Origin: a virus
Lineage: Duplodnaviria; Heunggongvirae; Uroviricota; Caudoviricetes
Length of the DNA: 32,626 nt
Virus record (IMG/VR): IMGVR_UViG_2778261384_000002
Reading direction: 5' to 3' (one strand)
Positions 3,229 through 32,626 of the stretch are shown piece by piece. Under the pieces are notes generated by a model that was given only the letters and a program-made list of their open reading frames with translations, was not told where the DNA came from and searched no databases. The translations under genes and the position numbers were made by a program. The number at the start of each line of letters is the position of its first letter. Positions within the stretch are counted from its first letter, which is position 1.

Positions 3229-4094
3229 AGGCAGCCCTTCAAAAACGACAGATCCGCGCCAGTGAACAGCACGACAGCAGTAAAAATAAAAGAATGGCCG
3301 GGCGGGCTACTGGATTCCAACGCAGACGCCAGTGACGCACCGCCACCGCTTCCCTTCCAGGACCAGACCTGCACGGCGGTTTCGTTCAGCTTGTCAAAGT
3401 CACCAGCCAGATCAGAAACAGCCTTTTCACGCAGCTTTACCAGTTCCGCCAATGTATCGACCGGCGCGCGGGTTTTATATGCGGCCAGCATCGCCATTTC
3501 TGACAACAGCAGGCGGCGCGATTCACGGTGATTTTTTTCGATCAGGTCGCCAGACTCCGGCCACGCCGGATAGGTCAGCGCGCCGGGGCGTTGCATTTTC
3601 TGGGATTCCTTGCCAGCGTGAGCGCGGGCGGTGTTCAGTGCCTGCGTAAATCCGGGGGCGGGCAAGGTGTCACAGACTTTTGTCAGCTTGCTAATGAAGT
3701 CCCCAATCTGACCAGCGCAAACCAGTAAACAAACGGCGTCACCGCCTGCGCCCATTCTCAGATCTGCACCATCGCGCAATTTTTCGGCCAGCCTTTTGAC
3801 GGCGTTCGGCGGGCTAAGATAAGTGCCGCTTTCTTCCTCCTTACCCGCGCCAAACGTCCAGTTATGAACGGCGATTTGCTGCCCGTTCGTTGTCAGTTTA
3901 TCCAGTTCGACGCGCAGATCGGCTACCTGATCCGCCTGCCCCGCCAATTCTGGCTGCGGCCACTGCGCCCGCGATTCCAGCGCGCGCAATGCGTTAATGC
4001 CAGGGGATGACAGCGACGACAACGCACCGTTTAACGTGTCATGCGGCGTTTTCACTTCATCCGGCAGTTTTAACTGTCCATTACTCCACGCCAT
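3225..4094 (-). CDS. Tail-operon hypothetical protein (about 290 aa)
   Basis: Track ORF 3225..4187 begins with TTG; the internal ATG at 4094 has a GGAG Shine-Dalgarno about 13 nt upstream. Hydrophobic C-terminus. No family recognised. Confidence 0.35.
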   Translation of the reverse strand: MAWSNGQLKLPDEVKTPHDTLNGALSSLSSPGINALRALESRAQWPQPELAGQADQVADLRVELDKLTTNGQQIAVHNWTFGAGKEEESGTYLSPPNAVKRLAEKLRDGADLRMGAGGDAVCLLVCAGQIGDFISKLTKVCDTLPAPGFTQALNTARAHAGKESQKMQRPGALTYPAWPESGDLIEKNHRESRRLLLSEMAMLAAYKTRAPVDTLAELVKLREKAVSDLAGDFDKLNETAVQVWSWKGSGGGASLASALESSSPPGHSFIFTAVVLFTGADLSFLKGCL

Positions 4095-4567
4095 GAATAA
4101 CCCCGCTCCCATTCGCTGGAAACCAGCGCGTGTAACTGGCCGGGCGAATAACGCCAGGCATCCCGTAACTGCATAAATTCGGCACAAAACTCGCTACAAA
4201 ACCACTTTTCAGGATTCCCACGGCAAAACAGCAAAAAGCCGATAACCCCGGCGATGTCGTATTTTTTCCCCGCGTACAGGCGGTAAAAACTGGCGATTTC
4301 CTGCGGGCTGGCGCTGATTTCGATCAAGTCCCATTTGTCAGAGGGTAAAGGCATTGTTTTAGCCCTGACCCCGCCATCACGGAACGATGACGAATAGCAG
4401 GTAAAATCCGTGCCGACGTCGTAGCACTGCGGCCCCACGGCGATTTCACAATGTGAATACGGACTGCGGGTAACAAGGCGTGTCACCCAGTCCGCCAGGC
4501 GGGCCAACCCTTTGTGTTCGCTGCGCCCACGATAAAACGCAATAAAAACCGCGTTCATGGTTGCCAC
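4070..4567 (-). CDS. Hypothetical protein with permuted papain-like (peptidase C92 / YiiX-like) motifs
   Basis: 165 aa; His-containing motif SPYSHCEIAV followed later by WFCSEFCAEF resembles the His-then-Cys order of C92/YiiX-type permuted papain-fold proteins; overlaps the tail fibre assembly gene stop by 13 nt. Confidence 0.35.
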   Translation of the reverse strand: MATMNAVFIAFYRGRSEHKGLARLADWVTRLVTRSPYSHCEIAVGPQCYDVGTDFTCYSSSFRDGGVRAKTMPLPSDKWDLIEISASPQEIASFYRLYAGKKYDIAGVIGFLLFCRGNPEKWFCSEFCAEFMQLRDAWRYSPGQLHALVSSEWERGYSWRGVMDS

Positions 4568-5157
4568 CCCTGGGACCAGTCGTAAGCCTCAACGGCGGCA
4601 ATATCGTCCAGGGCATTCACTGCCGCAATATGCGCCTGCGCGACGGCAAATAACCGCATATCATGTTCAATGGTCACAACCTCAAACTGCGCGGCGATCG
4701 CGTTGGTCAGTTCAATCATGCCGTTATTTTTGGTCTGCCACATAAGGCCAGACGGAAGCGCGCCCGCCTGCCCCATTTTTGCCAGCGTCATTTGCTGAAT
4801 GCGGCTGTCTGCGTCGCTGTGAAAATGATGGCCGTTAATTTCAACGTAATCAGCCGTCAACGTGTCGCGGTGTTGTTTGATTGACTGATTAACCGTTATT
4901 TTTGCGTGTTCCAGCGCGGCGCTGAATGCATCGGTGTCGTAAACCCATTTATCACCATTCAGGCGATAAAACTCACCTGGGGGAGGCGTTGTTACCAGTT
5001 TCCCAACGGCTGGATTTACCCAACAATCGCGATCATGGTAGCGCCACTGCGTGTCAGTGACGGGCATAATTGTTTCGGGTAAAACAATATTGAATTGATC
5101 GGTATCCAGCCACTGTAGAACTTTTAAATCAATAGGATTGTAATAAGCGTATTTCAT
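4555..5157 (-). CDS. Tail fibre assembly chaperone
   Basis: Start taken at internal ATG (MKYAYYNPIDLKV...) 4 nt after the tail fibre stop, with GGTGG Shine-Dalgarno; N-terminal motif and position directly downstream of the tail fibre gene are typical of Tfa chaperones. Confidence 0.6.
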   Translation of the reverse strand: MKYAYYNPIDLKVLQWLDTDQFNIVLPETIMPVTDTQWRYHDRDCWVNPAVGKLVTTPPPGEFYRLNGDKWVYDTDAFSAALEHAKITVNQSIKQHRDTLTADYVEINGHHFHSDADSRIQQMTLAKMGQAGALPSGLMWQTKNNGMIELTNAIAAQFEVVTIEHDMRLFAVAQAHIAAVNALDDIAAVEAYDWSQGWQP

Positions 5158-5161
5158 TGAG

Positions 5162-7255
5162 TTACCACCAAATTCTGACAAAACCTGGCGAACCATTGCC
5201 GCCATTACTTTTATTCAGCCCACTACAACTACCGCCAGAACCGCCCGCGCCGTATCCTGTCCCGTTACTACAACCTGATGGAATTCCTTTCCCACCAAGC
5301 CCGAATGGGCTATTTTCGCCGTCGCCAGCGGTCCATATTGTTGATTTAAGGCCATTGAATTCAGCCGGATCCCAAACGCCACTGTTCAGTAATCCACTGC
5401 CGCCCGCGGCTGAAACACCTCCGAAACTAGAAGAACCGCCAGCACCACCAACAATCAGCGCCGTGCCTGATGCAGGGATCGCACCAGCACCGCCAGCACC
5501 TACAGCAACAGAAACAGCCGCCCCCGGCGAAACGGCGACTATTGCAATAGCAATTTGAGCGGCGCGCCCTCCTGGTGCTGGCTTGTAGTAATTGGTGGAC
5601 GATGGGGCCGCGCTGCCGCCAGCACCGCCCCCGATCATTTCCACGAAAACTTTCTTTACCCCGGCAGGGACAGTAAATGTCCCGTTTGCAGTAAACAGGG
5701 CAAAATTACCGAAATAGCGCAAATCGGCGTTTGCCGTCGTGATAAAGTCCGGCGCGCCGGTAATATCGGACCAGGAGTGTTTATGGTTGGCAGCGGCTGC
5801 GCTTACGTCGCTGTACGTCAGCGTAATATCCGCTGACAGTGCCTTATTGTTCACCTTGCGCGTTGTTGGCACGGCGTTTACGTCGCTGTACGTCAGCGCA
5901 ATGTCCGCTGACAGCGCCTTATTGTTCACCTTGCGCGTTGTCGGCACGGCGTTTACGTCGCTGTATGTCAGCGTAATATCCGCTGACAGCGCCTTATTGT
6001 TCACCTTGCGCGTTGTCGGCACAGCGTTTACGTCGCTGTACGTCAGCGTGATGTCCGCTGACAGCGCCTTATCGTTCACCTTGCGCGTTGTTGGCACGGC
6101 ATTTACGTCGCTGTACGTCAGCGCAATGTCCGCTGACAGCGCCTTATTGTTCACCTTGCGCGTTGTCGGCACGGCGTTTACGTCGCTGTATGTCAGCGTA
6201 ATATCCGCTGACAGCGCCTTATTATTCACCTTGCGCGTATCCTGCACCGCGTGAACAATGCGTGGATCATCTGCTGCGGCAACCTGCCCCGCCAATTGCC
6301 CTACGTTGCACACCGCTGCGCCACCCAGCCCCAGATTTACGCGCGACTTGCCTTTATCATCCAAATCAGCCAAGTTTTGCGCCCGGCGCAAGTAGCGCTT
6401 ATCCAGATCGTCACTGTTACGCACTGGACGTAAATCAGTGACTGCCCCATCTGCGGCAATTTCAGCAATTTTAAATACATAGTGGGTTTTCCCCGCAGCA
6501 TCCGAATATTCAGCCAGATCGCCCGACGTAATGACGCAGATATCAGTGACCGGCACGCAGGCAGTCATTACAGACCCCTGCCAGACGGTATCCAGCCAGA
6601 CGGCGGCGGGTTTAGTCCCGACCGCGACATCCTGCGCGGCTTCGTTCGCCAATCGCAAACCGGCCACATAACCCAACCCCGGCAGGCAGCTATATTTCAC
6701 CCCGCTACGTTGAACCAGCCACCCATCATCAAAAAACAGCGCACTGCCGTAATGATCGATATTCAGTAAACGCTGATAATCATCAATACCCGTCAGACGG
6801 GCGGTAAAATCGATCTGCCACGTTTCGGCAGGCGTATTAATCCCTGTCTTTTCTGCAGCACCGTTAAATTCAATCAAAAACGAGCGAGTAAACGCGTTTC
6901 CCTGTTCCGTCGCCGTCGTTTTCACCTTTTCCAGCGCCGGGACCGTTGTCACCATCGCTAAAAGGCCCGTTTTTTTGCAAATCAGGCCGATCCAGTTAAA
7001 CGAAAAATCGCCGACGTTTGTTCCCAGGGTAAACGAGTACGCTACCGTGTTTTTGTTAACCACGCCCGCAGCGTTGACGGGTTCGCGGTAAACAATTTGC
7101 GCAGCATCCGGCAGACCGGCGTCACGGTTTATCACCGCACCCGGATCAAGGCCGGGCACATTAGCCAAAACAAATTCATCCAGCGAAATGTCGCCCGGCG
7201 TCAGCAGATCAGCGGCCTGCCACTGCTCAAATGCCGTCGTGATAATTGTTGCCAT
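5162..7255 (-). CDS. Tail fibre protein with tandem fibre repeats and glycine-rich C-terminal domain
   Basis: 697 aa; six tandem 26-aa repeats (TRKVNNKALSADITLTYSDVNAVPT) typical of phage tail-fibre repeat units; Gly-rich C-terminus; follows the gpI-like gene as in P2 (H after I). Confidence 0.8.
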   Translation of the reverse strand: MATIITTAFEQWQAADLLTPGDISLDEFVLANVPGLDPGAVINRDAGLPDAAQIVYREPVNAAGVVNKNTVAYSFTLGTNVGDFSFNWIGLICKKTGLLAMVTTVPALEKVKTTATEQGNAFTRSFLIEFNGAAEKTGINTPAETWQIDFTARLTGIDDYQRLLNIDHYGSALFFDDGWLVQRSGVKYSCLPGLGYVAGLRLANEAAQDVAVGTKPAAVWLDTVWQGSVMTACVPVTDICVITSGDLAEYSDAAGKTHYVFKIAEIAADGAVTDLRPVRNSDDLDKRYLRRAQNLADLDDKGKSRVNLGLGGAAVCNVGQLAGQVAAADDPRIVHAVQDTRKVNNKALSADITLTYSDVNAVPTTRKVNNKALSADIALTYSDVNAVPTTRKVNDKALSADITLTYSDVNAVPTTRKVNNKALSADITLTYSDVNAVPTTRKVNNKALSADIALTYSDVNAVPTTRKVNNKALSADITLTYSDVSAAAANHKHSWSDITGAPDFITTANADLRYFGNFALFTANGTFTVPAGVKKVFVEMIGGGAGGSAAPSSTNYYKPAPGGRAAQIAIAIVAVSPGAAVSVAVGAGGAGAIPASGTALIVGGAGGSSSFGGVSAAGGSGLLNSGVWDPAEFNGLKSTIWTAGDGENSPFGLGGKGIPSGCSNGTGYGAGGSGGSCSGLNKSNGGNGSPGFVRIWW
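5795..6250. repeat. Tandem direct repeat, about 78 bp x 6, in-frame inside the tail fibre gene
   Basis: Unit cgtcgctgtacgtcagcgtaatatccgctgacag...ttgcgcgttgtcggcacggcgtttacgt recurs with 78-bp period and a few point differences. Coordinates approximate. Confidence 0.8.
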
Positions 7256-7261
7256 TGTTAT

Positions 7262-7795
7262 TTATTCCCTGATAAGTGACGCGGCGTGACACACATAGTC
7301 ATTGTGTACGCTGCCCGCCTGAATATTGATCGGCGTGGATGTTAACGACTGGAAGCGATAGCGGCGACAGGTGCGCCCGTACTGCCGGACGATTTCACGC
7401 AGCAGATCACCGTGTTCAGAGATCTGCCGGTCGGTCAAATCCAACAAAATGACGTCCCAGTCAATACCGTCTACACGCTCATTTATCCCGACAAAACCTA
7501 TTTCCAGCCGTTCAAATATCCGGGCAAAACCCGCCGTACTGCCTGCATCCTGCGCATTAATGAACGCGTAATTCACGCGGCGACGGAACAGATCCAGCGG
7601 CTCCGCGTTTAAGCGGGTGACGTCACGCTGCCAGGCCAGCAAAAAGAGGATCGTTTCGTTACAGGTCAGCGCATCAAACTGCTGCAACGGCCAGCGCAGC
7701 CACGCATCAAGCCAAAGCCAGAAACGTTTGCACGCTGCCGCCAGCTTTTGCGGTTCGCCTTTGTTCATCCAGCTGGGCAATTTAATGTTCATCAT
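7262..7795 (-). CDS. Baseplate/tail protein, P2 gpI-like
   Basis: Start taken at ATG overlapping the gpJ-like stop (ATGA), giving about 177 aa; motifs LAWQRDV...RRRVNYAFINAQDAGSTAGFARIFERLEIGF resemble P2 gpI as recalled. Confidence 0.55.
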   Translation of the reverse strand: MMNIKLPSWMNKGEPQKLAAACKRFWLWLDAWLRWPLQQFDALTCNETILFLLAWQRDVTRLNAEPLDLFRRRVNYAFINAQDAGSTAGFARIFERLEIGFVGINERVDGIDWDVILLDLTDRQISEHGDLLREIVRQYGRTCRRYRFQSLTSTPINIQAGSVHNDYVCHAASLIRE

Positions 7796-8976
7796 GCGCT
7801 GCCCCATTTCACGCTTAATGACCGCAGGCGCGGAATATTCAGTTCACTGACGATGTCATCAAGAGAAAATTCAACAGACGACAGGGCGGGAAACGCCTCG
7901 TGAATTTCTTCACCCAACTTAGAAAAGCCAAACCGCGACCAGGGCCACGTTTTGGTAACGTCATACGCTGAATTCTCACGAAACGCGCAGCGCACCATGT
8001 TTTCAACGACCCCCGGCAGATCAGCACGTTCAGCATCGGTAATCATCGCGTTATCCGGGATGTGAAGCGTCACTTCCAGTTCATGAAAGGTTTCCGGCAT
8101 AGGGAAACATTGCATATCGTCGCCGTGTCCGTGGTTTCCCTGCCCCATCACGTAATCATTTACGGCTGCAATAAACGGATCACTGATCACACCTGCATCC
8201 AGCAATAAATACGCGTTAGCTGTTCCCGGTCCGCGCGGGGCGTCATGTAAAAAGAAAATGCGAGCGGTGCTCAATCCGGCCACACTGGCGATCGCCGAGC
8301 GATACACGGCGTCAATGTGATAGTTACCCACGACGTTAAACTGGTTACGGATACGCGGGCGAAATTCGTCGTCAGACTCACGATCAGCGCCTGGCTTCGT
8401 CAGCCAGTCATCGCCGGTCGTCACTTCCGCAACTCCCGCCACCGCGACGGGTAAAACATGGTAATAACCGGGCGCAAGGTTCCAGGCACTGCCCGCAGTA
8501 TCAGCCGTACAGGCGATCGATAGCTGCGCAATACCTGCGGGGATCATCGTCGTCGCATCCACAATCAGGCGATAAACTTCACCGTTAACGCGTTCTGTCT
8601 GAATGACAGTACCTGCCGGAATTGTCACATTTTCATCAGCACTGGTTTTAATAAACGTCACTGCACCCTGGGCGCACGTCGCCGCCTTACGTTCCAGACG
8701 GACCGCCCACGCCAGCAGGTCAAGCCACGTCCCGATCGCCGTAGCAACAAAAAGGTTAGTCAGAACCACATCTGCCAGCACATCACGCAGCCACAGCACC
8801 GGTTTAGTGACAATGGCGGAAATCAGACGCCAGAACGGCGACATTAACGACGTGTTAGTGACCAGCCCTTCATCATCGGCGACAGTCTGGAACTTCGCCT
8901 GAATTTCCTTTTCCGTACCCGGCAGGCCCGCGTCATCCAACAGGGCGCGGTAATCGGGTTTAGGTGTATCACTCAT
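7792..8976 (-). CDS. Baseplate J-like protein
   Basis: About 394 aa from ATG at 8976 (MSDTPKPDY), overlapping the upstream ORF by 8 nt; size and position between W-like and I-like genes fit the baseplate J family. Confidence 0.6.
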   Translation of the reverse strand: MSDTPKPDYRALLDDAGLPGTEKEIQAKFQTVADDEGLVTNTSLMSPFWRLISAIVTKPVLWLRDVLADVVLTNLFVATAIGTWLDLLAWAVRLERKAATCAQGAVTFIKTSADENVTIPAGTVIQTERVNGEVYRLIVDATTMIPAGIAQLSIACTADTAGSAWNLAPGYYHVLPVAVAGVAEVTTGDDWLTKPGADRESDDEFRPRIRNQFNVVGNYHIDAVYRSAIASVAGLSTARIFFLHDAPRGPGTANAYLLLDAGVISDPFIAAVNDYVMGQGNHGHGDDMQCFPMPETFHELEVTLHIPDNAMITDAERADLPGVVENMVRCAFRENSAYDVTKTWPWSRFGFSKLGEEIHEAFPALSSVEFSLDDIVSELNIPRLRSLSVKWGSA

Positions 8977-9304
8977 AAACAACCTCAACTGGATCAATCA
9001 GTCCGAATTCATAGGTTTCTGCCGTCACAATGACGCGGCCTGCCGCTTCCTCATACACGCGCACCGTTCCGGGGATTAGGCGGTTATCCGTTTCCACCAT
9101 CAGAATAATTTGCAGATAAATATCATTGCGCATGACAGCGGAACGCTGGCCGATAAGGTGCGTTGCCAGATTGCTTTCAATGATGCCGTGTTTAATGTCC
9201 TGACCAATGCTGACACGGTTGTCACAAAGCGTTGGTTCACGTCCGGTATTTAAAAGAAAATCGCCGTTAACAATTTTCAGATCGATATACAGTTTTTCAG
9301 TCAT
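8969..9304 (-). CDS. Small baseplate protein, gpW/gp25-like (DUF2590-type)
   Basis: 111 aa directly downstream of the tape measure gene and upstream of gpJ-like; size and position fit a gpW/gp25-type wedge protein. Tentative. Confidence 0.45.
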   Translation of the reverse strand: MTEKLYIDLKIVNGDFLLNTGREPTLCDNRVSIGQDIKHGIIESNLATHLIGQRSAVMRNDIYLQIILMVETDNRLIPGTVRVYEEAAGRVIVTAETYEFGLIDPVEVVYE

Positions 9305-11715
9305 CCCGCCGACATCTCCGCCATTTCCGCTATTTGCTGGGCGTCCTGCGCCTGCTGCACATACACATTGACGTTACCCACGCTGCGGCTGTTGTTTATA
9401 TTGGTCGTGCTTTTTGTTGTTTTACTGCTGACGCTGGCTACACCCGGATCAAGGACACCACCACGTAATACACCTGGGCTAGCAGGAGGCGGCGGCGGTG
9501 CAGTAGGGGAAACAGACGCAGGAACAACACCCGGAACCATCACAGACGCAGGCAATACAGCACCAGGAACCGGCGCAACAGCAGCGGATGACGTCGCAAC
9601 ACCAGGCGGCAGCATTACGCCCGGCGCTGGGGATGGGGCGGGCAATATTGCCCCCGGAACTATCGCAGCAGATGCTACGGGCGCAGGTACTCCAGCCGGG
9701 ACGGCGTCGGCCCCTTTTAATTCAATATCGACACCAGGCAATTTATTTAGCTGTTCAACAATACCGTTATATACGCCGTAAAATTGCTGGGCGATCGAAT
9801 CCCACAAACCGGAAAACATCTGCCCGACCGATTCAACGCCCGATTTAAACGAATCAGCAAACGAGAATTCAGAAAATGCAGTACATACGCTGTTCCAGCC
9901 CGCAACAACAGCGGGCCACGCCTGGATCAGCCAGTTCACAGCACTAATTAACAGATTGATTGGCATCAGGATCACGTCAAATGCAGCAGCAACGACAGAA
10001 CCGGCTGTACTGCCAGCATCAGAAAAAGTCGCCAGTTCATTTTCGGTATACTGAATTGGCGTCAGCAAATCACTAAACCAGCCGCACAGGCTTTTAATGC
10101 CATTCCATAACCAACTAACCACAGAACAAACCGCAGAAAATACCGGCCCCAACGCCGCCAGAACGTTCTGCAAAACCTGCGACTTTTGCGCCGCCTGCGC
10201 GAATCCAGTAACAAAACCGCTGAAAAATGCTTTAATTGGATTCCAGAATTTCACGACGGCAACCACGACAGCGCCGATCGCTAAAGCGATTAACGCAACC
10301 ACCCCCCAGATCGGGGCGGAAATGGCCGCAAGACTCCCACCAAAAGACAGCAAAGACATGCGCGCAGCCACCAGAGCGGTACGAAACAGCCTTGTGACAC
10401 CCGTTAACCGCAGGATGGACGCTGCACCACTGCTTAACGCTTTGAACATCGGCGTAATACCGGTGAAGATCCCCGCCAATTTAACGCCGGAATATGCCAT
10501 TTTAAGGCCACCGATCATCACGGAAAATGCTGCACCCGCCGCCGTTGCGCCAATAATTGACGCGGTAACAATTCCGATCCAGCGCGTAATATTCGGGAAT
10601 TTATTCAGCCAGGCGACAGCCGACTGGGCGACCTTTGTCATTTTTATCAGTAGCGGTTCCAAAACCGGCAACAACGCAGACCCCACAGCAATTTTTACCG
10701 CCGTAATACCTGCGGCGGCGCGCTCCCACGGATCGGCAACCGTGGCGGCGGCGCGTTTTACGTCGTCCAGCCCGTCGATCGCGTCAATCTCGCTGATACT
10801 GCGTTTCAGCCCGTCCGTATCACTGATCAGCAACTTGATCAGGGAAACCGCTTCATCACTGCCAAACGCTTTTTTCAGCAGGTCAGAATCCGCTACTTTG
10901 CTGATGTTCCCGAACCGCTTATGCAGCATGTCGAGAATTGCAGGCATTGACTTCATTTGCCCGGTGGCATCGGTAAACGACATTTTCAGCGTTTTCTGGG
11001 CGTTCCCTACCCCCGCCAGAAACGCTTTATATTTTGTACCGGCTTCACTGCCTGACATTGTTGACTGCAACTGACCCAGGATCGCGAATTGTTCCGCACT
11101 GCTGCGGCCTGCTGTCTGCGCAGCGGCCCCAAGTGACGTAAACGCCTGCGACATTGATTCACCGTCAGATTTAAACAGGTTGGCCGCATAGGCGGTTTGC
11201 CCGCCGATTTTCTCAGCCCATTTGATTTTCCCCATGCCGTCAGCAGTCTGTTTAAAGATGCCGTACATGGTCCCCATGTAGTTTGTGATCGTCTGCGTAT
11301 CGGCCTTTGTCGCCTTTGCAACAACCGCTGACGTGGTTGTGAATCCGGTCAATTCATCAGCAGACAATCCAGAAATTGCGGACTGAATATCGTAAGACGC
11401 GCTGACGATCTCCGCCGCGCTGCCGCCGTACTGCATACTGAATTGAAGCGCCGCGTTTTTAAGCTGCTTTAATCCCGTTTCGGTTACGTCCAGCGCCTTT
11501 ACAGAGTCCAGCGCGCGGCGCATTTCGATCGCCGGTTCCAGCCCGCCTTTTAATGCCTGGCCTGCGGCCCACATTGCCGCCGTTCCCATTGCAACCTGCT
11601 GCGCGCCGCTTTTTGCCGTCTGGCCCAGTGCGCTGACCTGCTGACGAATACCGCGCAGTGGGGCGCTTGCGCGGTCAATCAGAGAAATAATATAAGTCAG
11701 CGATTCACTAGCCAT
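9301..11715 (-). CDS. Tail tape measure protein
   Basis: 804 aa; alpha-helical N-terminal two thirds, multiple hydrophobic segments in the middle, Pro/Ala/Val-rich C-terminus; preceded by a frameshift-type chaperone gene. Confidence 0.85.
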   Translation of the reverse strand: MASESLTYIISLIDRASAPLRGIRQQVSALGQTAKSGAQQVAMGTAAMWAAGQALKGGLEPAIEMRRALDSVKALDVTETGLKQLKNAALQFSMQYGGSAAEIVSASYDIQSAISGLSADELTGFTTTSAVVAKATKADTQTITNYMGTMYGIFKQTADGMGKIKWAEKIGGQTAYAANLFKSDGESMSQAFTSLGAAAQTAGRSSAEQFAILGQLQSTMSGSEAGTKYKAFLAGVGNAQKTLKMSFTDATGQMKSMPAILDMLHKRFGNISKVADSDLLKKAFGSDEAVSLIKLLISDTDGLKRSISEIDAIDGLDDVKRAAATVADPWERAAAGITAVKIAVGSALLPVLEPLLIKMTKVAQSAVAWLNKFPNITRWIGIVTASIIGATAAGAAFSVMIGGLKMAYSGVKLAGIFTGITPMFKALSSGAASILRLTGVTRLFRTALVAARMSLLSFGGSLAAISAPIWGVVALIALAIGAVVVAVVKFWNPIKAFFSGFVTGFAQAAQKSQVLQNVLAALGPVFSAVCSVVSWLWNGIKSLCGWFSDLLTPIQYTENELATFSDAGSTAGSVVAAAFDVILMPINLLISAVNWLIQAWPAVVAGWNSVCTAFSEFSFADSFKSGVESVGQMFSGLWDSIAQQFYGVYNGIVEQLNKLPGVDIELKGADAVPAGVPAPVASAAIVPGAILPAPSPAPGVMLPPGVATSSAAVAPVPGAVLPASVMVPGVVPASVSPTAPPPPPASPGVLRGGVLDPGVASVSSKTTKSTTNINNSRSVGNVNVYVQQAQDAQQIAEMAEMSAG

Positions 11716-22006: not shown

Positions 22007-22786
22007 TTATTCAGTTTCTTGTAAAAGATGCTCTTGTAAATTGCTTTCGGCAGCATCAATCCAAACAGACATACTCTCAACAAAATTAGAAATATCTTCC
22101 AACGCTTTGATTAAAATATCTTTACTGAGCGTGATTTTAGTACCTTCTTTATCAAAACCATTTCTATGTACTATGTCATGTCGTATCTTTGCAATTTTAC
22201 AAACCTCTGGTATTTCTTTCTTAACATTATCTGGAACTTTCTCTCCAAGCACAGCGCCGTAAACTTGGACAGTTTTTTCAATGTTATGGTACAAGTAGTC
22301 AGAAAACTTTCGAATAGCCACGGTTTTAACTATATCTGGATTTAAGTATACGTCTTTTAATGATAATTTTTCTTTTTTTAACTCTTCAACATCATCTATT
22401 GCATTTTCAAAAAAATGATTATTCCTAAGAATTAGACTTTTTATCATGTCACCTAGACATGTTTCCATCAGAGTTATTGAATAAGAGTACATCATTTTCA
22501 ATGCTGACTCGGAAGGCTTGGAAGTAATATCGTCTTTCAATTCTTCCATTTGTTCGCTGAATTGCCTGTACGCATAATTTTCTGACCCAAGCCGGAAAAC
22601 TTCATCCTGTAAAAATTCATCTTCCCAATAATCATCATCTGTAAATTGCCCAGATAGATATTGCGCCTTTAAGTCTTCCCACTCCTCATCACCCGGCTCG
22701 ACCCCCAGATCCGCATGTTCCCTTATCCACTCAATCATAGCTTCTTCAGCTTCACAAGCCTCAATGTATCGTTTTACTGAACCCAT
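22007..22786 (-). CDS. Accessory protein with HEPN-like R-x4-H motif (candidate abortive-infection RNase)
   Basis: 259 aa in a distinctly AT-rich segment; AGGGGA Shine-Dalgarno 6 nt upstream of ATG; acidic N-terminus; C-terminal KIRHDIVHRNG contains an R-x4-H motif of the kind found in HEPN nucleases. Confidence 0.45.
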   Translation of the reverse strand: MGSVKRYIEACEAEEAMIEWIREHADLGVEPGDEEWEDLKAQYLSGQFTDDDYWEDEFLQDEVFRLGSENYAYRQFSEQMEELKDDITSKPSESALKMMYSYSITLMETCLGDMIKSLILRNNHFFENAIDDVEELKKEKLSLKDVYLNPDIVKTVAIRKFSDYLYHNIEKTVQVYGAVLGEKVPDNVKKEIPEVCKIAKIRHDIVHRNGFDKEGTKITLSKDILIKALEDISNFVESMSVWIDAAESNLQEHLLQETE

Positions 22787-27588: not shown

Positions 27589-27806
27589 TTTTTATATTCC
27601 TTGTTATATCGTTCGTGAGTTAATAAAGTCCATTGCTGGCCGTCGTTTTTACTCAGTAACCGCCAACATCTGCCGATTGCAATTGACAGATAACCAGTCG
27701 CCAGCCGCCGCACTTTATCGCGGCGACCCTGTCGGAATTCACTAATTAAATTGTGTGCCTGATCAACAACGTAGGCGGGGCAATTATCATTTTTCCGGCG
27801 AATCAT
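27585..27806 (-). CDS. Small hypothetical early protein
   Basis: 73 aa, basic; overlaps both neighbours in the early operon; no motif recognised. Confidence 0.3.
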   Translation of the reverse strand: MIRRKNDNCPAYVVDQAHNLISEFRQGRRDKVRRLATGYLSIAIGRCWRLLSKNDGQQWTLLTHERYNKEYKK

Positions 27807-28374
27807 GATTCACCTTCTCCGCGCGAACGGCAGAAATATTTTTGATATCGTCGCTTAATCTGGCAATCTGGTTAATAACGTCATTCATTGCGTGATGCGG
27901 ATGTTCCAGAACCGCGCGCATTGATGAGTGACCGCATATTGTCAGCGCGATTTCTGCAACCGTTCTAACGTCGCGAGCATTCCAGAAATTCCAGGCCGGA
28001 CGAATCCCTGTCAGGCGCATCGAGTGATAAATAACTGGTAAATCAAAATCAGTGCCGCGCGCCCATATTTTTAAATCTTCTGAATCATCACAAAAACAAC
28101 AAAAATCGTTCAACTTATAGAGCGACTCTGATAAAGGCAAACCAGCATCGGATACAAGCTCATCTCTTGCGCATAAATTTTGCTTCATCCACCATTTAAC
28201 AGTATCCGCACCAATTGTCGCCCCTTTGTATTGAGCATCAGCAACATTAACGGGAATATAAATAGACATTCCAATCTCGCCAGTTCGGGGATCGAAAAAT
28301 GCGGCAGCAATAGAAACAATTGAGGCAGTTGGTTTATTATCCAATGTTTCAATGTCAATCATTATATTATTCAT
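27787..28374 (-). CDS. 3'-5' exonuclease, DEDD (DnaQ-like) superfamily
   Basis: 195 aa; N-terminal IDIETLD (Exo I D-x-E) with later FDLPVIYH and HHAMNDV motifs consistent with DEDDh exonucleases. Confidence 0.6.
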   Translation of the reverse strand: MNNIMIDIETLDNKPTASIVSIAAAFFDPRTGEIGMSIYIPVNVADAQYKGATIGADTVKWWMKQNLCARDELVSDAGLPLSESLYKLNDFCCFCDDSEDLKIWARGTDFDLPVIYHSMRLTGIRPAWNFWNARDVRTVAEIALTICGHSSMRAVLEHPHHAMNDVINQIARLSDDIKNISAVRAEKVNHDSPEK

Positions 28375-31633: not shown

Positions 31634-32626
31634 ATGACCATTACTAAAAAGGACAACGGAAAATACATGGTTGATGTTCGGCCTGCGGGGCGTTCCGGGA
31701 AGCGCGTCAGGCGTTCATTCTCCACTAAATCAGAGGCTGTCACCTTTGAACGCTGGATAATAGCCAGTGCTAATAATAAAGAATGGCTGGAAAAACCAGC
31801 TGATCGGCGTCGGTTATCTGAACTGATCGAATTGTGGTGGAAGAACCACGGGCAAACGCTCACCGACTGCAAAAACCGGTTATGGATTTTGAATGCGTCA
31901 TGCGCGCGCTTAAATAATCCACGTATAACCCAACTCACCGCCCAGCTTTTTGCAGAGTACCGAACAAAACGGCGGGCAGAAGGGATCGCGCCAAAAACGT
32001 TAAATAATGAACAACGTTACCTGAAGTCAGTGTTCAGTAAATTGAAAGAACTGGATCTCTTCTGGGATAACAACCCAATGACTGGACTCGCAGAACTGAA
32101 ACTGGCCGAATCAGAACAGGGATATTTTACTGACGAACAGATTAGAACGGTTCTGACAGAGTTAACAGGCGACAACAAGCTGATAGCCAAACTTTGTCTG
32201 TCCACCGGTGCACGATGGAGTGAAGGTGCAAAATTAACCAGGCAGAGACTGGTTAACGGCATGGTGACATTTACAAAAACTAAAAATGGCAAATCACGTT
32301 CAGTTCCTATCGGTAAGGAACTGGAAATGGAGTTAATGCAGAGGATTGAAGCACACGATAAACAACTGATTTTCCCGGATGCGAGCTATCAGACTGCACG
32401 AAAAGTTATTAAAGGCGCTGTTCCTGATCTACCTGACGGACAGGCAACCCACGCTTTCAGGCACACTTTCGCCTCTCATTTCATGGCAAACGGAGGAAAC
32501 ATATTGGTACTTCAACGAGTCCTGGGCCATCACAAAATCCAACAAACGATGACTTATGCTCACTTTGCCCCTGATCATTTGTTTGATGCGGTGACATTAA
32601 ACCCATTAGCTACGATGAAAATATAA
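31634..32626 (+). CDS. int: Tyrosine integrase, P2 Int family
   Basis: 330 aa; N-terminus ...DVRPAGRSGKRVRRSF.TKSEA..FE and C-terminal GQATHAFRHTFASHFMANGGNILVLQRVLGHHKIQQTMTYAHFAP (R...HxxR...Y catalytic motifs) match P2 Int as recalled; stop codon is the last base of the window. Confidence 0.9.
   Translation: MTITKKDNGKYMVDVRPAGRSGKRVRRSFSTKSEAVTFERWIIASANNKEWLEKPADRRRLSELIELWWKNHGQTLTDCKNRLWILNASCARLNNPRITQLTAQLFAEYRTKRRAEGIAPKTLNNEQRYLKSVFSKLKELDLFWDNNPMTGLAELKLAESEQGYFTDEQIRTVLTELTGDNKLIAKLCLSTGARWSEGAKLTRQRLVNGMVTFTKTKNGKSRSVPIGKELEMELMQRIEAHDKQLIFPDASYQTARKVIKGAVPDLPDGQATHAFRHTFASHFMANGGNILVLQRVLGHHKIQQTMTYAHFAPDHLFDAVTLNPLATMKI

Follow-up and report, generated by a model that had tools for sequence, protein, structure and literature searches.

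A tail-fibre repeat array of apparently variable copy number and a predicted receptor-binding tip in an HP1-like prophage of Escherichia coli

The virus record IMGVR_UViG_2778261384_000002 (Caudoviricetes) is a stretch of DNA of 32,626 nucleotides, referred to here as the window, and it spans a whole prophage. A gene on its minus strand encodes a protein of 697 residues, which is probably the tail fibre of a temperate, HP1-like myophage that has integrated into the genome of Escherichia coli. The fibre shaft contains six tandem repeats of 25 residues, and the number of repeats differs among alleles that are nearly identical outside the array. The array has the character of a variable-number tandem repeat, and this is likely to be the best explanation of the observations as a whole. 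The fibre ends in a glycine-rich domain that is predicted to be the receptor-binding tip, and its gene is followed by a gene for a probable tail-fibre chaperone. The positions of these features are given in Table 1.

An earlier reading of the DNA, made from the sequence alone, had assigned the gene to a tail fibre and had suggested that its repeats expand and contract by recombination. Its gene coordinates agree exactly with the list of open reading frames (ORFs) of the window, and the assignment is borne out by family searches. The N-terminal Pfam domain Phage_tail_fib (PF12571) is recognised with an E-value of 1.7e-26 and 93.4 bits against a gathering cut-off of 23, and the match covers profile positions 6-149 of 150. 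Matches to the tail-fibre families of PHROGs reach E 6e-112, and the gene follows those of Baseplate_J and Tail_P2_I. The N-terminal tail-collar domain presumably attaches the fibre to the baseplate. Among 5,426 complete E. coli genomes in RefSeq, 6 have an identical gene, which is already annotated there as a tail fibre under the label 'phage tail-collar fiber domain-containing protein'.

Table 1. Positions of the tail-fibre gene, its parts, and adjacent genes in the window
Feature	Position	Strand	Extent and evidence
Tail-fibre gene	5162..7255	-	697 residues; stop codon 5162-5164; ORF list, Pfam and PHROG matches
N-terminal tail-collar fibre domain	6785..7252	-	residues 2-157, PF12571; conserved proximal part to ~residues 280-340
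Shaft motif YLRRAQNLADLDDKGKSRVNLGLGGAA	6308..6400	-	residues 286-316; PDB match to repeats of 'short tail fiber gp92', 9zd7, E 1.2e-5
Six tandem 75-bp / 25-residue shaft repeats, read as a variable-number array	5789..6238	-	residues 340-489; repeat finders and translation
Conserved linker NHKHSWSDITGAPDFITTANADLRY between array and tip	5714..5788	-	residues 490-514; HxH motif
C-terminal TNF-like plus glycine-rich (TG) domain, predicted receptor-binding tip	5165..5713	-	residues 515-697; PF21722, profile, AlphaFold2 (AF2), Foldseek
DUF4376 protein, probable tail-fibre chaperone	4555..5157	-	200 residues from MKYAY; PF14301
Tail_P2_I-like gene, upstream of fibre	7262-7807	-	Pfam/PHROG
Baseplate_J gene, upstream of fibre	7792-8997	-	Pfam/PHROG

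Repeat array and its copy number

Tandem Repeats Finder identifies a single array at positions 5799-6238 with a period of 75 nucleotides, 5.9 copies, 93% matches, no indels, and a score of 768. A repeat search gives a constant start-to-start spacing of 75 nucleotides, and translation resolves the array into six in-frame units TRKVNNKALSADITLTYSDVNAVPT that occupy residues 340-489, or positions 6238-5789 of the window. The sequence-only reading was right about six near-identical, in-frame units, but its unit of 78 bp and 26 residues is one codon too long. Since the unit comprises exactly 25 codons, each gain or loss of a unit stays in frame. The units are 84-99% identical in DNA overall and 93-99% identical among units 1-5. 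At the protein level, unit 3 has an N/D exchange and units 2 and 5 a T/A exchange, as had been noticed before. The V/S exchange that had also been listed is in fact a replacement of N by S and of VPT by AAA at the end of the last unit (...DVSAAAA versus ...DVNAVPT). The remaining differences between units are mostly synonymous third-position changes, so the peptide is kept while the DNA drifts. Units 1 and 4 are one nucleotide apart, as are units 2 and 5, and the longest exact repeat of the array, 122 nucleotides, recurs at an offset of 225 bp or three units. The near-identity of these pairs and the exact repeat therefore point to the recent copying of a three-unit block.

When the whole fibre was compared with the PDB in a single-sequence search, the only match was that of the shaft motif upstream of the array to 9zd7. 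The strand opposite the fibre contains a repetitive ORF of 171 residues at positions 5739-6254 (+). This frame is no gene but a shadow of the array.

The copy number was compared among E. coli alleles that are at least 99.4% identical outside the array; identity in this set is 99.4-100% for the N-terminal 339 residues and 98.4-100% for the last 183. The proteins of this allele are 722, 697, 672, or 622 residues long, corresponding to 7, 6, 5, and 3 units, respectively; the five-unit form has two structures and the three-unit form several. The six-unit form is found on ~170 contigs, most of them draft, the three-unit form on ~40, the five-unit form on three, and the seven-unit form on one. Every variant array of this allele was found in a draft assembly or on a contig whose sequencing method was not checked. 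With the units numbered u1 to u6, locus L004 has the three-unit order u1-u5-u6, which corresponds to a 225-bp deletion within the 122-nucleotide exact repeat. L007 has seven units with u4 duplicated, L008 has five with u4 lost, and L009 (five units) and L010 (three units) each include a hybrid unit. Variant arrays are found in assemblies GCA_048605295.1 (three units, 225 bp), GCA_012646525.1 (seven units, 525 bp), and GCA_006233615.1 and GCA_902845485.1 (five units, 375 bp), and strain LZSFT34 is one with six units (450 bp).

These variant loci are all at the same chromosomal site and differ by 0-9 single-nucleotide polymorphisms (SNPs) in 12.6 kb of flanking DNA, so that genomes with 3, 5, 6, or 7 units are near-identical around the gene. 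L004, L007, and L010, which have three different arrays, are separated by no SNPs in 12,644 flanking nucleotides, and the two five-unit loci are one SNP apart in their flanks. Both the Ala63 and the Ser63 sub-lineages of the allele include six-unit and shorter forms; the changes have therefore recurred. The copy number also differs among more distant prophages, a comparison that the sequence-only reading had proposed as a check of its suggestion. The 40EC-type allele has five units in the complete genome of strain 40EC (669 residues) and two in P0029 (594 residues). The E. albertii lineage has five or three units, the Salmonella lineage two to six, and diverged relatives overall have two to seven. 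All observed variants keep the reading frame and whole units. The forms found support the suggested expansion and contraction: one and the same repeat number in all related genomes, which would have spoken against active variation, is not what is observed. An effect on fibre length would follow from these changes.

Two alleles of the window gene are altered outside the units. In P0019 (608 residues), 14 residues (GQVAAADDPRIVHA) are deleted in frame just before the first unit, and in P0008 (694 residues) three residues (GAG) are lost from a glycine motif of the tip. A literature search for fibre repeat copy number and for 'Gly_rich_2' or 'PF21722' returned nothing relevant.

The repeat region gives only noise in searches of Pfam (E <= 10) and NCBIfam, and no model in them covers the 25-residue unit. 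In contrast, an exhaustive HMMER search with three units retrieves 2,016 cluster representatives at E <= 1e-3, 666 of them at E <= 1e-10. In the best 150 of the ~2,000 matching clusters, the modal spacing is 25 residues, the strict motif occurs in 1-13 copies per protein, and some proteins carry tail-fibre N-terminal domains. Some unit-bearing proteins of 1,500-2,000 residues hold more than a dozen copies. By these matches the unit is a common building block of fibres; a very common 25-residue fibre repeat is missing from the curated domain libraries.

Glycine-rich tip, linker, and downstream gene

Glycine makes up 25.3% of the last 150 residues of the fibre (~25% over the last 150-183), 8.8% of residues 1-339, and 0% of the array. 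The glycine-rich end had been identified in the sequence-only reading, which limited it to 150 residues and expected it to form the receptor-binding tip. The folded domain is predicted to be longer, ~183 residues (515-697), and the proposed function is supported by homology to gp24 of cyanophage Pam3 and by exchange of the tip independently of the N-terminus.

The Pfam domain Gly_rich_2 (PF21722) matches residues 523-624 of the fibre (E 3.5e-8, 34.2 bits against a cut-off of 24.3), over profile positions 2-98 of 226 only, and all distant homologues of residues 490-697 contain this domain. A single-sequence search of the PDB with the tip alone returns chance matches only (Argonaute, E ~0.7). 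The Pam3 fibre was found only with a profile of the alignment A1, which comprises the tips of relatives and distant Gly_rich_2 proteins. The profile matches 7yfw and 7ypx with E 1.9e-16, with profile positions 84-269 aligned to chain residues 74-274 and a high composition bias. Homology to the distal domains of Pam3 gp24 was found over the whole length of those domains. An AF2 model of the tip computed with A1 has a mean predicted local distance difference test score (pLDDT) of 81.9 and a predicted template modelling score (pTM) of 0.77, and residues 515-697 are confident. In Foldseek, the best PDB match of the model is the Pam3 fibre 7ypx_A (E 1.1e-5, a moderate TMq of 0.59, 26% identity), followed by Bxb1 gp33 ('tail wing brush') and the glycine-rich ligand-binding domains of ALK/LTK. 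The best PDB matches are all TG-domain proteins, and the model, a structure prediction of the kind that the sequence-only reading had recommended, thus predicts a TG fold for the tip.

A homologue search with the tip only gave 20 matches, because glycine-rich words saturate the candidate list. The relatives have at least four tip types, which are ~50% identical to one another and are joined to N-termini that are 95-99% identical. In pairs of fibres that have exchanged the tip or, in some relatives, an inserted knob-like domain, the N-termini are 95% identical in P0011/P0031 and 99% identical in window/P0021-22 and in P0024/P0025. The breakpoints of these exchanges are at or within the array. 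In P0022, unit 1 is of the window type and unit 2 (TRKVNDKPL...) of the 40EC type; the tip switch is therefore read as lying inside the array, a position taken from reading the sequence and not from a mapped breakpoint. Judged from these comparisons, the tip diverges more, and is shuffled more, than any other part of the fibre, and it is exchanged as a cassette independently of the N-terminus. Such a pattern would be expected of a receptor-binding cassette and supports receptor binding as the probable function of the tip.

It is also conceivable that the glycine-rich domain acts as a chaperone within the fibre chain, or purely as a structural cap, and is removed from the mature fibre or buried in it. 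Many phage fibres end in autoproteolytic chaperone domains. This precedent, which is mentioned in PMC9608196, speaks for such a function. However, both 7yfw ('Pam3 fiber proteins') and the fibre-chaperone complex 7ypx contain the homologous domain of Pam3 gp24. The entry 7yfw is taken here to derive from a reconstruction of the Pam3 virion. Furthermore, the Bxb1 homologue gp33 belongs to the structure of the tail tip, a separate gene of the chaperone type is located downstream of the fibre, and the domain is the part of the fibre that diverges and recombines most. A chaperone or cap is therefore very unlikely.

The linker between the array and the tip, with the pattern AAAxH.H.W(S/A)DI.G.PDF, is kept in all tip types of alignment A1, and its pLDDT in the AF2 monomer is low. 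In other trimeric fibres, HxH motifs coordinate metal ions along the fibre axis. By analogy, the linker could clamp a trimer in register at its axis, although metal binding by it is speculative.

Several relatives (L002 4001-6367 from E. coli N1420, ~residues 440-545; P0020, P0027, P0028, and P0031-P0033) have a knob-like domain of ~100 residues between 25-residue units, with the sequence …TPGIYYQPANANTSAALNYPEN.AGALIVYRDAG.QQEYRVYNSSRRWTRAQY…. The array appears to be an insertion point for an extra knob-like module as well.

The gene downstream of the fibre encodes a DUF4376 protein, the start codon of which is 4 nucleotides past the fibre stop. The C-terminal match to PF14301 covers residues 102-205 with E 6e-11 and 43.2 bits against a cut-off of 25. 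DUF4376 proteins encoded downstream of fibres are chaperones in the Alteromonas phages V22 (gp27) and A5 (gp9) (PMC7289586, PMC10579305), and by analogy the protein of the window is a probable tail-fibre chaperone. It is 74-79% identical to its counterparts in relatives. The start of the gene is ambiguous: a form of 216 residues, encoded at 4555-5205, overlaps the fibre gene by 44 nucleotides and is used in some RefSeq records and gene calls, and the 200-residue form starting with MKYAY at 5157 is used in others. The 200-residue form is conserved in N1420.

Explanations of the copy-number variation

Several observations weigh against the overall reading of a variable fibre array, a receptor-binding tip, and a dedicated chaperone. 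The six-unit array is identical in each of the six complete E. coli genomes in RefSeq that have this allele. It has therefore remained stable while the prophage spread, and high-frequency switching is not seen in these genomes. The three-unit form u1-u5-u6 is exactly the product expected from a short-read assembler that collapses the 122-nucleotide repeat. An AF2 monomer model of the shaft (residues 270-520, alignment A3) is unusable, with a mean pLDDT of 46.6 and a pTM of 0.14. Even for Pam3, the tip is no more than 'proposed' to bind a receptor. No solved structure in the PDB significantly matches the DUF4376 protein, and comparison of three such proteins shows no visible co-variation of their N-termini with the tip type. 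The lack of this signal is attributed to the identity of the three proteins, which is 74-79% throughout.

If the copy-number differences were assembly artefacts, the true array of this allele would always have six units, which would agree with the complete genomes. Skipping the 122-nucleotide repeat at its 225-bp offset would account for the common three-unit form, and the seven-unit and five-unit forms are singletons from draft assemblies. Such artefacts are nevertheless a decidedly unlikely cause of the variation. The three-unit protein P0016 is encoded on contigs longer than 1 Mb, up to 4.84 Mb, in five blocks of the collection, and the ~170 mostly draft contigs resolve six units correctly. 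There are several distinct variants, and among them the hybrid units and the duplication are beyond what a collapse can produce. Moreover, the five units of 40EC are from a complete genome, in a related allele, and the E. albertii and Salmonella lineages vary in copy number as well.

The orders of units in the variants (u1-u5-u6; u4 duplicated) match the expectation of in-register unequal recombination or replication slippage. A programmed origin of the variation could be proposed instead, through a diversity-generating retroelement, an invertible segment of the Gin/Cin type, or dedicated phase variation. Where units differ non-synonymously, the change is from A to G (N to D, T to A), which superficially resembles adenine-directed mutagenesis, but the variation is in the number of whole units and not in scattered adenines. 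Among the ORFs of the window that were scanned or annotated there is no reverse transcriptase and no serine invertase, and the sole recombinase is the tyrosine integrase at 31634-32626, at the end of the prophage. The inverted repeats around the fibre gene are weak and at chance level, and none is significant. A diversity-generating retroelement and an invertase-switched fibre were rejected for the absence of these components, and programmed variation is extremely improbable. Without a reverse transcriptase or invertase, the variation is therefore ascribed to ordinary recombination or slippage at repeats.

Unequal homologous recombination or replication slippage would add or remove whole units in frame. 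Each unit would contribute a fixed increment to a trimeric shaft, and copy number would therefore set the length and reach of the fibre. The repeats could double as homologous junctions for the swapping of tips, the glycine-rich tip would bind the host receptor via variable distal loops, and the DUF4376 protein would aid trimerisation and folding of the tip.

A stronger form of this mechanism, in which the array is a hypermutable locus for tuning fibre length, is unlikely. In such a locus, units would be gained and lost frequently and in frame within the lysogen population, which would give virions with fibres of varied reach matched to the thickness of the O-antigen or capsule. The same repeats would serve as a universal homologous adapter for the exchange of glycine-rich tips and knob modules between Escherichia and Salmonella HP1-like prophages.

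The array may, on the other hand, be a true variable-number repeat that functions as a neutral spacer, with gains and losses tolerated as drift that has no effect on adsorption or host range. This possibility carries appreciable weight, short of an even chance. It is favoured by the dominance of the six-unit form over the other forms of this allele and by the invariance of the array in the complete genomes. The range of 1-13 copies per protein in the best 150 of ~2,000 clusters likewise suggests a generic building block. Against neutrality, the mostly synonymous differences between units indicate purifying selection on the protein, and all variants preserve the frame and whole units. Tetart and co-workers (1996, J Mol Biol 258:726, a reference cited in PMC9603124) are said to have reported that tandem duplications in gene 37 of phage T4, in the adhesin tip, were selected for expanded host range. 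By analogy, changes of copy number may alter host range here too, although the T4 duplications are in the tip and not in the shaft.

If copy number and tip type do set the host range, the alleles with 3, 5, 6, and 7 units in identical backgrounds would constitute a natural series for relating fibre length to adsorption. The tips, of at least four types, would in that case be interchangeable parts for the engineering of receptor-binding proteins. The allele series and the exchangeable tips are both useful experimental material. Tips of the Pam3 type, for which structures have so far been described from a cyanophage and a mycobacteriophage, appear to occur in enterobacterial prophages. Current views of phage fibre evolution are unchanged by these observations, which represent a tidy but ordinary example that would not surprise a phage biologist.

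Prophage context and comparison with known systems

The host prophage combines a capsid module of the P2 type with a tail module of the HP1 type and adjoins yeaE and gapA. The fibre gene is preceded by the Baseplate_J and P2-I-like genes and, further upstream, by DUF2590 and tape-measure genes. Downstream of it are the genes of the DUF4376 protein, two proteins of unknown function, the baseplate protein HP1_ORF34, and a protein of 548 residues. The order baseplate J / P2-I-like, fibre, chaperone-type gene is found in the window and in loci L001-L010. The neighbours of the HP1 type are HP1_Orf24 and HP1_ORF34.

A tail-module protein of 165 residues encoded at 4070-4567 (-) has no Pfam match but matches phrog_1128 (E 1.6e-53). 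The label of this family, 'enoyl-CoA hydratase/carnithine racemase-like' in the moron category, is odd for a gene between a fibre chaperone and baseplate genes. The C-terminal part of the tape-measure protein (9301-11715, -) ends with a long low-complexity stretch rich in Pro, Ala, and Val (…PAGVPAPVASAAIVPGAILPAPSPAPGVMLPPGV…TAPPPPPASPGV…). A HEPN protein of the RiboL-PSP type and a 3'-5' exoribonuclease similar to Rv2179c are encoded among the early or accessory genes at 22007-22786 and 27787-28374 (-), respectively, and are possible defence or cargo genes.

Among the closest known systems are the fibres of HP1-like phages: Haemophilus HP1/HP2 orf31, Cronobacter ESSI-2, Yersinia vB_YenM_324, and Aeromonas phiO18P. 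In tblastn they are 42-52% identical to the window fibre over residues 1-276/340, and these phages share the tail module composed of HP1_Orf24, DUF2590, Baseplate_J, and HP1_ORF34. In contrast, the distal two-thirds of the fibre differ. At E <= 1e-5, neither the array nor the glycine-rich tip has a match in any isolated phage of the collection, and a megablast search of 50,697 phage records found no DNA-level match.

Gene 37 of T4 resembles the window gene in the reported in-frame tandem duplication of a short fibre segment via recombination between repeated motifs, which gives rise to fibre variants. The duplicated segment of T4 belongs to the adhesin tip, whereas the units of the window belong to the shaft. 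Gp27 of V22 and gp9 of A5 are similar to the DUF4376 protein of the window in having the domain at the C-terminus and in being encoded directly downstream of a fibre, but the fibres of these phages do not have the architecture of the window fibre. The TG domains of ALK/LTK and Bxb1 gp33 (PDB 7mzy, 7nx1, and 9d93) are of the same fold class as the predicted tip, with Foldseek E-values of 1e-5 to 1e-3, and Bxb1 gp33 also matches the tip profile (E 0.0016). TM-scores of 0.25-0.45 and identities of 12-22% indicate a relation at the level of the fold only.

The fibre of Pam3, a phage of a cyanobacterium, is minimal: gp24 has an N-terminal alpha-helical bundle and, unlike the window fibre, neither a repeat shaft nor a tail-collar domain. 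Its TG domain is the distal, host-recognising end of the fibre, in which the glycine lattice is conserved and the tip, the proposed site of receptor binding, is hypervariable (PMC9608196). The chaperone gp25 resembles Tfa of phage Mu in structure and C-terminal sequence, and DUF4376 is not mentioned in its description (PMC9608196). The two systems nevertheless share a homologous distal TNF-like plus glycine-rich domain, a separate chaperone or chaperone-type gene directly downstream of the fibre, and a tip whose glycine motifs are conserved and whose distal loops vary.

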